From: Escherichia phage vB_EcoM_G50
Direction: 5' to 3' (one strand)
Length of the DNA stretch: 64,000 bases
Sequence record: NC_054917.1
Shown here one piece after another: positions 16,638 to 63,379 of the stretch. Below the pieces are notes generated by a model, which searched no databases, had not been told where the DNA came from, and saw nothing but the letters and a program-made list of their open reading frames with translations. A program made the translations under genes and the position numbers. Each line of letters begins with the position of its first letter. The stretch's first letter is position 1.

Positions 16638-17288
16638 TTATTTTTCCTTTCTTATGAAGTTTTCTATCATATGTCTATAGCAGATATTAGGATAACCTGC
16701 CTTGACAGCTATTTTATTAAATTTTGTGCGCTTAGGTCTATTATTATAAACCCATAATTCATAAAGCGCATCATAACTATTCCATATTTCTCCTCGCCTA
16801 GGATTTGGTAAACCATATCGAGGCGAATTTTTACCGCTAAATCTTCCTTTTCGGGCTTTACTCATATTAGCCTTGGCTTCATCGGATATAATTTTACCTT
16901 TATGAGCTAGACGCATTTTGGCTTTAGTTTCTTCTGGAGTCTTTTTACCTTTAATCCATGACGGCTTGCCATATCTAGGATTATTTTCACCCGAGAAAAG
17001 AACAGAGTTTTGGATTTTAAGGGTTTCTATTAATCTACTTGTTAATTTAACACCTTTATTATATCGCATTAAATTTACAGCATAATGCAATCCTCTCACA
17101 TCTGGATATATTTTAGTTAATAATCTATGAGCTATAAAATGCTCACGCGCAGTTAACTCAACAAGATTGTTTTTGCCATCTGCTCCTCCCATACATCTAG
17201 GAATTATATGATGGCGTTCTTTATATCCGCCAAGATGCCGGCATTTAGCTTTTGTAATTAAAGCCGAGTAAATTTTTTGGTAATTCAC
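16638..17288 (-). mobile_element. HNH homing endonuclease (Mob family), 216 aa
   Basis: HNH motif ERHHIIPRCMGG...NLV...REHFIAH; repeated G.N.PRYG motifs; GTG start; N-terminus paralogous to mobA-like ORF at 2960-3778. Confidence 0.8.
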
Positions 17289-17358: not shown

Positions 17359-17559
17359 ATGGTACAAAAATTAATGGCACTTGTTAATGCCATAAAAGGT
17401 AATAAAAAACGTATAGCTTTTACTATTTCTGCTATGGTAGGAATTTTACTCTGGAACTTTATTCTATCACCTGTTGCAATTGCGCATGGTATTAATATTC
17501 CAGTAGTTACTCTTGATACATTTGTAGATTTAGCATTTGCTTTAGTTGGGTTGATTTAA
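17359..17559 (+). CDS. small membrane protein, 66 aa, two predicted TM helices
   Basis: Only plus-strand ORF with a strong SD (TAAGGAGG, 4 nt before ATG); hydrophobic segments; convergent with gene 61, stop codons overlap. Confidence 0.5.
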   Translation: MVQKLMALVNAIKGNKKRIAFTISAMVGILLWNFILSPVAIAHGINIPVVTLDTFVDLAFALVGLI

Positions 17560-18584
17560 ATCTTAGCATATTTAGATAGCCGCATTTTAGCCATCAACCC
17601 CTGGGCAATATTATTTTTCATATATTCCATAATTTGTTCAGGGGTTGCACCTTCCTTTCTAATCATATCATTGACATCTTTTGATTTCCAGGGAGATTTA
17701 TCCCAAAACATAACCCTTTCTCCTGCATCAACTAATTTAGTCATTCGCTTAATAGTGTCAGGATGACGAGGTTCATTATCTAAAACCCACACACGTCTAT
17801 CTTTAAATGGAACAACTTCTAGGTCTAATTGACCACCCGTAATAGCTATACCATTTTCAATAAAAAGTGAATCTATAGGTCCTTCTAGAACATATACATC
17901 ACCATCTTTAACTCGTTCTACTCCATAGATTTTTGTTGCCTCAGGATAAGCTTTGATGGTGATATATTTTTGGGGAGCATCTTTCTTTAATGCACGTCCT
18001 TGAAAAGACTCAGCTTTTCCATTAGCATTATAAATTGGAATAACAAGACGAGGCTCAGAAATTTCCTTTTTGTATGTTCCCGGTGCTATGCTATTAACTA
18101 ATTTAGGCCATTCGGTTGTAAACCAAAGATATTTCCATTTATCCTTTGGAATACAACGAGCTTTTACATATTTTATAATTGGATGGTCTTCCGCCAGTTT
18201 ATCTAATCTAACACATGACGGAAGAGATTTAATTATTTTCTTCTCAGGTTGCTTAGGAAGTTCTTTAGGTTTTTCTACTGGACGACTTTTACCTTTTTCT
18301 TTTCTTATTTCAAAGATATACTCACGATATAAATCGGGTTCAAACTCCTTTAAATATATTCCGATTGGTGCATGATAGTTACAGTTATAACAATGAATAT
18401 TTCCTTCATTATTATCACCATAATACCATCCACGAGCTTTATTCTGGTCGGTTTTTGAATCTCCACAAACAGGACATCTAAACCGCAATTTAAAAGTTGA
18501 ACTATTATTTACTTGTGTGAATTTAGGTAAATGAGCTAATGCACGATACGCAAACTCATTATCAATCCAAGGTATTGATGACAT
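17556..18584 (-). CDS. 61: DNA primase gp61
   Basis: 342 aa; zinc ribbon CPVCGD...CYNCNYH; matches T4 gp61. Confidence 0.9.
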   Translation of the reverse strand: MSSIPWIDNEFAYRALAHLPKFTQVNNSSTFKLRFRCPVCGDSKTDQNKARGWYYGDNNEGNIHCYNCNYHAPIGIYLKEFEPDLYREYIFEIRKEKGKSRPVEKPKELPKQPEKKIIKSLPSCVRLDKLAEDHPIIKYVKARCIPKDKWKYLWFTTEWPKLVNSIAPGTYKKEISEPRLVIPIYNANGKAESFQGRALKKDAPQKYITIKAYPEATKIYGVERVKDGDVYVLEGPIDSLFIENGIAITGGQLDLEVVPFKDRRVWVLDNEPRHPDTIKRMTKLVDAGERVMFWDKSPWKSKDVNDMIRKEGATPEQIMEYMKNNIAQGLMAKMRLSKYAKI

Positions 18585-18586
18585 TT

Positions 18587-18751
18587 TTACTCTTCTTTTT
18601 CTTTAGATTCCTCTTTTTTCTTTTTAGGAATCTGTTCAGGACCTTTATTTACTACAGCGCCTGATGTTGTTCCAGTAGAGATATTTTCAGGATTACCACC
18701 TGAATCTCCAGCGACCATATCTTCTTTGATAAATTCTTTATATGTTTTCAT
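18587..18751 (-). CDS. small protein with capsid-targeting-like N-terminus (61.1 position)
   Basis: Hand-translated 54 aa MKTYKEFIKEDMVAGDSGG...; SD AGAGG upstream. Confidence 0.45.
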   Translation of the reverse strand: MKTYKEFIKEDMVAGDSGGNPENISTGTTSGAVVNKGPEQIPKKKKEESKEKEE

Positions 18752-18752
18752 A

Positions 18753-19379
18753 TTAACCTCTATTCATAAAAGAATTAAAAATTTGGTCATCAATAGAAAC
18801 ATTTACTTTAGACTGTTTTTCGGATGGTAATTCATATCCACATATTACAATTTTGTGATCAATATCAAAATACACAGAAGCAATATGATTAATGCTGTTT
18901 TCAGTAAAGTCTAAATCAACATCAATATCTTTTTGACCAAAGCCCAAAGGATAAATAATGCGAGTAATTCGATTATCTTTAACAAAGATTCCACCGACAT
19001 ACTCTGTACTGCGTTTAAAGTCTACACGCCGACGAAATGAAAAATATTCAGGCTCTTTATGAGCTCGGCTCATAGGGCACAACGAATAACTAGAATAAGA
19101 GATGTCAAATCCTACGCCTTCAATATGAACTAAATTGTCATGATTAAACCAATTATAATCATATGCCAAGTCCATTAGATTGTCATATGTGAAAGGCACC
19201 GGATTAACATCATTGGTCACAAGCATATAATTAGCAACTGCTATAATTTCATTATTTTTAACGAATACAAACCGTGATTGGTGCGAATGGCCTGGACCTG
19301 CGTTTTCACGATTAATGATATAACACTGGGCACCTTTATATTTGTACGTGTCTTTACACTTGTGCATTTGATAAAGCAT
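18753..19379 (-). CDS. hypothetical protein (61.2 position)
   Basis: 208-aa ORF. Confidence 0.5.
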   Translation of the reverse strand: MLYQMHKCKDTYKYKGAQCYIINRENAGPGHSHQSRFVFVKNNEIIAVANYMLVTNDVNPVPFTYDNLMDLAYDYNWFNHDNLVHIEGVGFDISYSSYSLCPMSRAHKEPEYFSFRRRVDFKRSTEYVGGIFVKDNRITRIIYPLGFGQKDIDVDLDFTENSINHIASVYFDIDHKIVICGYELPSEKQSKVNVSIDDQIFNSFMNRG

Positions 19380-62571: not shown

Positions 62572-63045
62572 TTATTTGAACGATTTAACGTACTGAATAG
62601 AACCTTTACTATTCACGAAAGCGATTTTACCATTTTTATTATACATGGTAGCAGTACGCTGATAGCCATAAGTTTGCTTACCAGATTGATAACCAACTAA
62701 TGCAAAATTATCTTCACCCATTTTATTCTGTTTAGCGCGAATGCGTTCATGACCATGTGCCATAAGAACCTTAGCATCACCAGTTGCAATGGATCGACGA
62801 GTTTTTTCATCTTCAACTGTATTAACAAAGTCGTCAAATGAATCAAATTTAGCATGAGATTTATTATACAGTTTTCCATCTACTGCATAATTATATCCCT
62901 GTACATCCATCTCAACTTCTGTACCATCATCCAATACAGCAGTGATTTTCTGTCCTTTTTTAAATTTCAAAAGATCAGTAAAAGATTCAGCAATAATTTG
63001 AGAATTAATAGCTGCTTCAGTAATAAATTCTTGATATGTTTTCAT
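62572..63045 (-). CDS. internal head protein with capsid targeting sequence
   Basis: 157 aa starting MKTYQEFITE (CTS consensus). Confidence 0.65.
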   Translation of the reverse strand: MKTYQEFITEAAINSQIIAESFTDLLKFKKGQKITAVLDDGTEVEMDVQGYNYAVDGKLYNKSHAKFDSFDDFVNTVEDEKTRRSIATGDAKVLMAHGHERIRAKQNKMGEDNFALVGYQSGKQTYGYQRTATMYNKNGKIAFVNSKGSIQYVKSFK

Positions 63046-63061
63046 GTGTATCCTTTAATTT

Positions 63062-63379
63062 TTATTCTTTAGGGAAGTTTTTAGAATATGCATCATAAAG
63101 CTTATTTCCAATACGGCGGAAAACTCTAGCCGCAAAACGATTTTCTGGGTTTTTAATCATGATTTGCATCATATAAGTACCCGCGTCAGAAAGAGCTTCT
63201 TCATAGTACCCGTTAATTTCTTTAAGAGTCCTACGTTTACCACCAGGACCATCAACAGTGATTTTCCATTTACCTGTAGAAGTGCGACTTGGCGGCTCAA
63301 CTTGTTCAATCCAGATATAACCGCCTTCTACACGTTGTCCTTGGGCAGATTCTGCAATAAATTCTTTAAACGTTTTCAT
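63062..63379 (-). CDS. internal head protein with capsid targeting sequence
   Basis: 105 aa starting MKTFKEFIAE. Confidence 0.65.
   Translation of the reverse strand: MKTFKEFIAESAQGQRVEGGYIWIEQVEPPSRTSTGKWKITVDGPGGKRRTLKEINGYYEEALSDAGTYMMQIMIKNPENRFAARVFRRIGNKLYDAYSKNFPKE

Follow-up and report, generated by a model that had tools for sequence, protein, structure and literature searches.

A window of 64,000 nucleotides (nt) from Escherichia phage vB_EcoM_G50 (sequence record NC_054917.1) was analyzed around a small gene between adfA (61.2) and the DNA primase gene 61. A sequence-only reading of this window had described a 54-codon open reading frame (ORF) there. The ORF was said to have a good Shine–Dalgarno sequence, a start nearly copying a capsid targeting sequence (CTS), a Gly/Ser/Thr-rich middle, and a Lys/Glu tail, and each of these was found as described. 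The gene, its parts, and its neighbors are listed below; positions are those of the window, and a slash within a peptide marks a known or predicted cleavage position, or the point aligned with it.

18587-18751, minus strand: gene 61.1 ORF, ATG start, 54 codons, TAA stop at 18587-18589 (from the ORF list; translation MKTYKEFIKEDMVAGDSGGNPENISTGTTSGAVVNKGPEQIPKKKKEESKEKEE)
18757-18760, minus strand: Shine–Dalgarno sequence GAGG, 5 nt before the 61.1 ATG, overlapping the end of adfA (61.2) (read from the sequence)
18722-18751, minus strand: leader, residues 1-10, MKTYKEFIKE, CTS-like, ending in the predicted gp21 site IKE/D
18638-18721, minus strand: conserved core, residues 11-38, DMVAGDSGGNPENISTGTTSGAVVNKGP, equivalent to residues 66-93 of gp23*, which comprise the N-fist (66-91) and the first part of the N-arm
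18590-18637, minus strand: tail, residues 39-54, EQIPKKKKEESKEKEE, Lys/Glu-rich here (from family alignments)
18753-19379, minus strand: upstream neighbor adfA (61.2), anti-DarT factor (Pfam PF23813 AdfA, E 7.6e-138; T4T annotation)
17556-18584, minus strand: downstream neighbor, gene 61 DNA primase (ORF list; T4T annotation)

The three genes are tightly packed. The stop codon of adfA (208 amino acids, aa) at 18753-18755 ends 1 base ahead of the 61.1 ATG, and the primase ATG is 2 nt past the 61.1 stop. By megablast, phage T4 and its near relatives share ~98.5% identity with this region. The ORF had been described as missed by the track, but it is already gene 61.1 in T4 records, where T4T record HM137666 lists it at 18952-19116 as 'hypothetical protein gp61.1', so it is not new to public annotation. 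The two versions are 1 nt apart, with Y4 in the window and F4 in T4T. T4 head assembly is among the best-studied assembly pathways, and 61.1 has been without an assigned function since the genome was sequenced. In the open literature, we found no paper on any function of 61.1, and none on the CTS-like leader, the similarity to the gp23 junction through homology, the origin by deletion, or the tracking of each phage's own gp23. A 41-aa ORF on the plus strand (18539-18664) was set aside as a poly-T translation artefact. Terminator and RNA family scans around the ORF gave nothing relevant.

The product of 61.1 matches the major capsid protein gp23 across its maturation site. In a BLASTP comparison with T4 gp23, residues 2-38 of gp61.1 aligned with gp23 residues 57-93 without gaps, with 43% identity over 37 aa (E 1e-8). 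At the junction, FIKE/DMVAGDSGGNPENISTGTTSGAVVNKGP of gp61.1 lies against FLTE/AEIGGDHGYNATNIAAGQTSGAVTQIGP of gp23. The leader is equivalent to gp23 residues 56-65 (AQAFGSFLTE), and the similarity runs 28 residues beyond the cleavage site, into the N-fist. Residues common to both proteins include G70, D71, I79, A80, G82, G86, A87, G92, and P93 (gp23 numbering). A profile built from 17 family members was searched against 177,635 PDB sequences, and T4 gp23 was the sole match (E 1.7e-8; 4e-6 for mature gp23*). An hhalign comparison of the family with a gp23 N-terminal alignment gave 97.6% probability and E 4e-12 over 47 columns (gp23 52-102).

The protease gp21 cuts after Glu during prohead maturation, and the bond cut in gp23 is Glu65/Ala66 (PMC9546572, PMC7136217). 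The predicted cut after Glu10 of gp61.1 is in exact register with this bond. The requirement of gp21 is L/I-x-E, with very few other known determinants (PMC12991175). In gp61.1, the L/I-x-E motif in register with the gp23 site lies in a segment for which disorder or a helix is predicted. The sequence-only reading had proposed looking for an LxE-type site, and IKE at residues 8-10 is the sole L/I-x-E in the protein.

Residues 66-91 of gp23* form the N-fist (PMC7136217, PMC9958956). It is internal and disordered in the unexpanded head, where residues 66-105 are disordered (PMC9546572), and it is ordered on the outside after expansion (PMC9546572, PMC7136217, PMC9958956). In the expanded head, it touches four subunits and helps build the Soc site, and the head-length mutations A66D, A94V, and G97S lie in the same N-terminal region (PMC9546572, PMC7136217, PMC9958956). 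AlphaFold2 modeled gp61.1 as a short helix at residues 4-13 with the rest as coil (mean pLDDT 59.5), and predictions for the isolated segment indicate disorder. Compared with gp23 (PDB 5VF3, 6UZC, 7VS5), gp61.1 shares the propeptide end, the cleavage site in register, and the N-fist, and both segments are disordered when alone. A difference is that gp61.1 lacks the P, A, and I domains and has a charged tail where gp23 continues its N-arm. Because gp61.1 matches both the junction and the N-fist, cleavage would leave little more than a free N-fist carrying a charged tail.

Automatic pipelines label some 61.1 homologues 'major capsid domain-containing protein'. We could not reproduce this name with Pfam; Pfam and NCBIfam searches with the short and the long forms of 61.1 gave no match. 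No HK97-fold body (P and A domains, E-loop) is present in the 54 aa of gp61.1, which has no Pfam capsid family match. Hence gp61.1 is not a capsid protein, and such names overstate the relationship.

The leader was then compared with known targeting sequences. MKTYKEFIKE is identical to the canonical T4 CTS, MKTYQEFIAE, at 8 of 10 positions. The claim that it nearly copies the CTS of the internal-protein genes in the window also stood, since it shares 8 of 10 residues with each of two such genes: MKTFKEFIAE (start at 63379, minus strand) and MKTYQEFITE (start at 63045, minus strand).

63062-63379, minus strand: internal-protein gene, 105 aa, MKTFKEFIAES... (ORF list)
62572-63045, minus strand: internal-protein gene, 157 aa, MKTYQEFITEAA... 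(ORF list; DUF7412 / phrog_3155 'internal virion protein')

As a chance test, we took the 837 ORFs in the six frames of the window that start with ATG and reach at least 30 aa. Leader identity above 4 of 10 was seen in 3 of the 837 starts, namely 61.1 and the two internal-protein genes, and the same three were the only ones with the pattern Y/F4, F7, I/L8, and E10. The CTS resemblance of the 61.1 leader is far beyond chance. The two genes at 62572-63379 occupy the ipII/ipIII position and are not T4 alleles, consistent with the known fast turnover of cargo behind a constant CTS.

Packaging of IPIII requires just its first 10 residues (Mullaney & Black 1996, from the Black laboratory, reviewed in PMC9026906). 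Mutagenesis of the IPIII CTS indicated that positions 4 and 7 serve chiefly for targeting and positions 8 and 10 for processing (PMC9026906). gp61.1 carries the IPIII residue at all four positions (Y4, F7, I8, and E10), and the difference between Y4 in the window and F4 in T4T parallels the Y/F variation among internal proteins. Short-form relatives from several genera keep the pattern of an aromatic residue at 4, Phe at 7, a hydrophobic residue at 8, and Glu at 10. The four determinant positions align with F59, F62, L63, and E65 of T4 gp23 (our locus L003, 4925-6490). On this alignment, the CTS of the internal proteins may in turn be a small-scale version of the ten residues that end the gp23 propeptide.

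The size suggested by the sequence-only reading, about 44 aa if processed, also agreed with our calculation. The predicted mature product after a Glu10 cut is 44 aa and 4.6 kDa, with an isoelectric point of 5.0 and 7 Lys/Arg versus 9 Asp/Glu.

The origin of the leader was examined with a DNA alignment of the window and phage RB69. The Shine–Dalgarno sequence and ATG of 61.1 aligned with the Shine–Dalgarno sequence and start codon of RB69 ORF033c. Codons 2-10 (KTYKEFIKE) aligned in frame with an internal RB69 segment, EIFKELPLFE, just ahead of DMVAGD. The alignment implies that a ~510-bp deletion took away ORF033c and an N-terminal domain (N-domain), giving rise to the T4 short form. As read from these sequences, the CTS-like leader of 61.1 was once the helix ahead of the cleavage site in a longer ancestral protein. 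A leader borrowed from an internal-protein gene was considered and rejected. The first 30 nt share 25-26 of 30 positions with such genes, but the upstream DNA is unrelated, and in-frame descent from the RB69-type internal segment also rules it out.

The proposal of a CTS-tagged cargo was therefore retained in part. The four determinants and the conserved site agree with it, but the tag does not come from an internal-protein gene and the protein is not a standard internal protein. Similar to IPI, IPII, and IPIII of T4, gp61.1 begins with a leader of 10 residues that fits MKT(Y/F)xEFIxE, with predicted cleavage after Glu10. Apart from the origin of the leader in an internal helix of a longer protein, two differences stand out. 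The cargo of 61.1 would be a 44-aa acidic disordered copy of the N-fist, whereas theirs is a basic folded anti-restriction protein. The 61.1 gene lies in the primase/anti-toxin region with early RNA, and its packaging is a prediction. gp61.1 is no ordinary internal protein that borrowed its tag, and the gp23 N-fist copy is its more informative feature.

Two further observations concern the tail and the RB69 gene. In T6-type relatives (P0002, P0004), a 1-nt deletion in a AAAAAGAAAAAAG run, within the A-run at ~18611-18625 of the 61.1 tail, gives a strongly basic tail, KKKKRNLKKKKSKNVINTLD, and a 62-aa ORF overlapping the primase start. This frame is closer to the basic tails seen elsewhere in the family than the Lys/Glu tail of the T4 type is. 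In RB69 (NC_004928; L009 1818-2284, minus strand), a frameshift divides the long-form gene into two parts, ORF032c (63 aa) and '61.1' (92 aa), and other Mosigvirus genomes gave continuous long-form matches. The RB69 split is either a sequencing error or a pseudogene.

The 61.1 family is large. A tblastn search found the core, in a short or longer form, in 1,484 phage records, and the ORF is intact in hundreds of Tequatrovirus genomes. The short-form family phrog_1823 matched gp61.1 over its full length (E 7e-34), and the long-form family phrog_2086 matched residues 8-53 at profile positions 109-154 (E 2.6e-16). Close homologues are 51-62 aa long, with a core that is almost unchanged and, across short forms of several genera, invariant. 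The leaders differ among them (MKTYKEF..., MKSFKEVMNE, MTILQQYLDSLNE). In the family alignment, A14, G15, D16, I24, G27, T29, and G31 are invariant. A hydrophobic-x-Glu motif stands directly ahead of the invariant core in 17 of the 17 aligned Straboviridae members, long and short, and also in phiM12. The ratio of nonsynonymous to synonymous substitution rates (dN/dS) of the core was 0.09-0.25 against RB69, RB16, and a Krischvirus, which covers both forms; it was 0.09 against RB69, where synonymous sites are near saturation. The ORF in the window is T4 gene 61.1, a real small protein under purifying selection.

Long forms of 120-165 aa are found in RB16, Aeromonas phage 65, Vibrio phage VH7D, RB69, phiR1-RT, and phiM12. 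They consist of a ~105-aa helical N-domain, followed by hydrophobic-x-Glu, a Gly/Ser/Thr-rich core, and a basic tail. We take this architecture, at ~120-165 aa and with its gene beside primase, as the ancestral one of a family that extends throughout the T4 superfamily and has the T4 protein as its truncated member. The long forms of phrog_2086 / phrog_18642 (RB16 gp61.1, phiR1-RT Gp036, Aeromonas phage 65 gp61.1, phiM12 gene 456) have a homologous core and tail, and the same site and locus, as the protein of the window, which differs in lacking the ~105-aa N-domain. The location is also conserved. The family gene is directly upstream of primase in the window, T4T, Aeromonas phage 65 (between helicase 41 and primase 61), VH7D, and RB69, and it is also upstream of primase in phiR1-RT. 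Small ORFs, one or a few, intervene in RB16, the Krischvirus, and phiM12, and in HTVC008M the distance is ~3 kb.

Whether 61.1 resembles the gp23 of its own phage was analyzed across lineages. Within Straboviridae, the identity between the 61.1 core and gp23 was 14-21 of 36 whatever the pairing; both are too conserved there to discriminate. Three deeply diverged lineages have a short, different gp23 N-terminus and a correspondingly different 61.1-family motif.

HTVC008M: gp23 ...FLGE/IANVTGSAVANWDP; 61.1-family protein ...QQED/IANVAGDGAVSMPP; IANVAGDGAV versus IANVTGSAV in gp23
Melnitz: gp23 ...FLSE/AAPTNSTGSAVDNWDP; 61.1-family protein ...KTED/APANASGSAVAG; APANASGSAV versus APTNSTGSAV in gp23
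phiM12: gp23 ...LLQE/AAPTTNTGNIATYDPVL; 61.1-family protein ...VEVEGS/AVPSTNTGNIPDTVAKKSPVL; AVPSTNTGNI versus AAPTTNTGNI in gp23

In each of the three, the predicted mature N-terminus of gp23 is where the match starts. For phiM12, its own gp23 was the top BLASTP match (E 0.008). In a 5 × 5 matrix of local alignment scores, the own-phage pairing had the highest total of the 120 permutations, and 4 of the 5 61.1-family proteins scored best against their own gp23; the sample is small (five lineages), and motif boundaries were picked by eye. The T4 pair and the Vibrio pair are not independent of each other, and the latter combines 61.1 from VH7D with gp23 from VH1_2019, the same genus but another species. 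One ancient duplication followed by independent drift would equalize the distances to own and other gp23. The excess thus points, at the level of sequence, either to concerted evolution or to co-adaptation of the two proteins to a lineage-specific partner that they share. Candidates for this partner would be the protease, as the reader of the post-cut residues, the scaffold, or a capsomer socket.

A relative of gp61.1 has been found in particles. Gp036 of phiR1-RT ('gp61.1 conserved hypothetical protein', 160 aa) was detected, by tandem mass spectrometry coupled to liquid chromatography, in purified particles with a score of 44, 61.9% coverage, and 9 unique peptides (PMC6893735). Many baseplate proteins rank below it, and carried-over enzymes far below it (PMC6893735 supplement). 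Its sequence, ...KELPVLE/SMVAGN...NIASGTTTGAVVNKGP..., confirmed it as a long-form member. The homologue of T4 gp57B was detected in the same particles at the level of gp61.1 (9 peptides, 65% coverage; PMC6893735 Table S3). Gp036 and gp57B are either both packaged or both abundant carry-over.

The own-capsid-matched junction of propeptide and mature protein, the leader following the CTS rules, and the particle-associated relative together argue for a head-related reading. We infer, as quite possible though a little short of probable, that gp61.1 is targeted to the prohead core and cut by gp21 after Glu10, which would free an N-fist peptide of 44 aa. Binding to the scaffolding core, of the kind made by the CTS and by the end of the gp23 propeptide, would fall to the leader or to the gp23-like segment. 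gp61.1 would then be enclosed in the prohead, and cleavage after Glu10 by gp21 would release a disordered 44-residue N-fist peptide with a charged tail. What the peptide might do afterwards is a more speculative matter, and the following proposal seems improbable to us as it stands. A free copy of the N-fist/N-arm matched to the phage's own gp23 could dock in N-fist sockets without a neighbor arm, i.e., in capsomers facing the portal or gp24 vertices, or could compete with gp23 N-arms for the scaffold. It would thereby tune head expansion, length, or vertex stability, with the corollary that the CTS is a miniature gp23 propeptide end.

Several points weigh against targeting and processing of gp61.1 in the head. 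In time-resolved omics of T4, 61.1 RNA was early and its protein was without a class (PMC9697503 supplement); ipII and ipIII likewise have early RNA but late protein in the same data (PMC9697503 supplement). No late promoter (TATAAATA) was found on the 61.1 strand between 17 and 23 kb of the window, and the gene sits in a cluster for replication and anti-defense, not in a head cluster. One mass-spectrometry study of T4 heads does not mention 61.1 in its text or supplements, which carry no full protein list. The phiR1-RT particle preparation also contained the abundant soluble proteins gp32, lysozyme, and gp57B at similar levels, so Gp036 could have been carried over (PMC6893735). The residue after the predicted cut is Asp or Glu in most 61.1 members, versus Ala or Ser in proven gp21 substrates. 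The predicted 44-mer is acidic, in contrast to the basic mature internal proteins of T4, and relatives of gp61.1 carry basic tails. We found no preference of the 61.1 motif for own-phage gp23 within Straboviridae. Conservation in T4-like genomes, on which the sequence-only reading had made its proposal depend, held for the site and the short-form leader pattern. It failed in the two pelagiphage-type proteins (QQED and KTED), in which the residue three before the cut is not hydrophobic.

Other explanations were weighed against packaging in the head. gp61.1 might act in the cytoplasm as a pseudo-substrate or decoy: made early, it would occupy stray gp21, or a host sensor of gp21 activity or of the gp23 N-terminal region, and so be an anti-defense factor. 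We consider this unlikely, although several facts fit it. The RNA is early, gp61.1 is disordered and mimics a substrate, and the tracking of own gp23 suits a mimic bound to follow its own protease or capsid. The gene is directly downstream of adfA in the dmd-tifA-adfA 'anti-toxin–antitoxin island', whose remaining genes have been suggested as anti-toxin candidates. A 2026 preprint described a CD-NTase (a nucleotidyltransferase) of the antiphage system CBASS that is turned on when gp21 cleaves an exposed loop with an LPE motif (PMC12991175), and such a sensor makes a competing substrate of phage origin plausible. Similar to dmd, tifA (61.4), and adfA (61.2), 61.1 is small, early, non-essential, and in one transcription unit with them. 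It has no sequence relation to these genes, however, and is older than the island, being linked to primase in phages without it (Aeromonas phage 65, phiM12). The presence of the long form in particle preparations also speaks against a decoy. In addition, gp61.1 has no experimental tie to any defense system and had no match in any library searched, the PADLOC defense library not being among them.

The position next to primase could instead reflect a role in the replisome or in primase expression, including translational coupling to gene 61. The capsid-like segment would then be kept by occasional gene conversion and have no role in the head. The linkage to primase spans Straboviridae, Kyanoviridae-like pelagiphages, and phiM12, and the order helicase 41–61.1–primase 61 in Aeromonas phage 65, the 2-nt spacing to the gene 61 ATG, and early expression all suit such a role. 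The basic tail of most relatives could, from its composition, bind DNA. Even so, gp61.1 is not similar to any replication protein or domain, and what T4 retained is the capsid-like part alone, which is under strong purifying selection. That the converted segment always starts at the capsid cleavage site is not accounted for by gene conversion by itself, and a relative is particle-associated. We regard this role as rather improbable. Least credible, and in our view very improbable, is that the 54-codon ORF is a decaying leftover of the deletion without function, its CTS resemblance being an accident of descent. The removal of ORF033c and the N-domain, the unstable tail with its T6-type 1-nt frameshift, and the lack of a class in proteomics could be taken this way. 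They are opposed by the low dN/dS against RB69 (0.09, with synonymous sites near saturation), the core that does not vary across short forms of several genera, and the intact ORF in hundreds of Tequatrovirus genomes. The Gol peptide presumably lies just downstream of the gp23 region aligned with 61.1, so Lit/Gol exclusion was set aside.

If targeting and processing of gp61.1 are true, the T4 prohead would have an additional component, and the CTS and the gp23 propeptide junction would be versions of one recognition element. A gene found across the T4 superfamily would also be kept matched to the mature N-terminus of the capsid protein. If the decoy is true instead, 61.1 would be a phage answer to the recently described host sensors of the prohead protease or capsid protein. 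In addition, 61.1 bears on CTS-type tags for loading cargo into T4 vectors.

The N-domain of the long forms was analyzed separately. A profile search of 1.8 billion representative proteins found it in 1,789 clusters, many with other C-terminal modules. Fusions to unrelated C-terminal modules of 100-400 aa are frequent (proteins P0099-P0246), and the N-domain has the look of an uncharacterised module spread widely among T4-like phages. Its AlphaFold2 model had a pLDDT of 81-90 over residues 11-70. Foldseek gave no PDB match for this fold, its BFVD matches were uncharacterised phage proteins, and no Pfam or NCBIfam family was found. The C-terminus of one N-domain protein, P0237, had been taken by eye for a 2H-phosphoesterase, and Pfam gave no support for this guess. 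In HTVC008M (L010 5591-5962 and 5965-7044) and Melnitz (L021 3600-4118 and 4120-4569), the N-domain and the capsid-like motif are in separate adjoining genes. Several of these genes start like a CTS (MRTYRAF..., MKTFTDF..., LKTFLQF...).

One neighboring difference from T4 was also observed. T4 has the dam methyltransferase gene between gene 56 and dam.1, and the phage of the window has a 216-aa ORF there instead (16638-17288, minus strand). This ORF carries a NUMOD3 motif (Pfam E 7e-7) and HNH-like sequence, and it is probably a homing endonuclease in place of dam.

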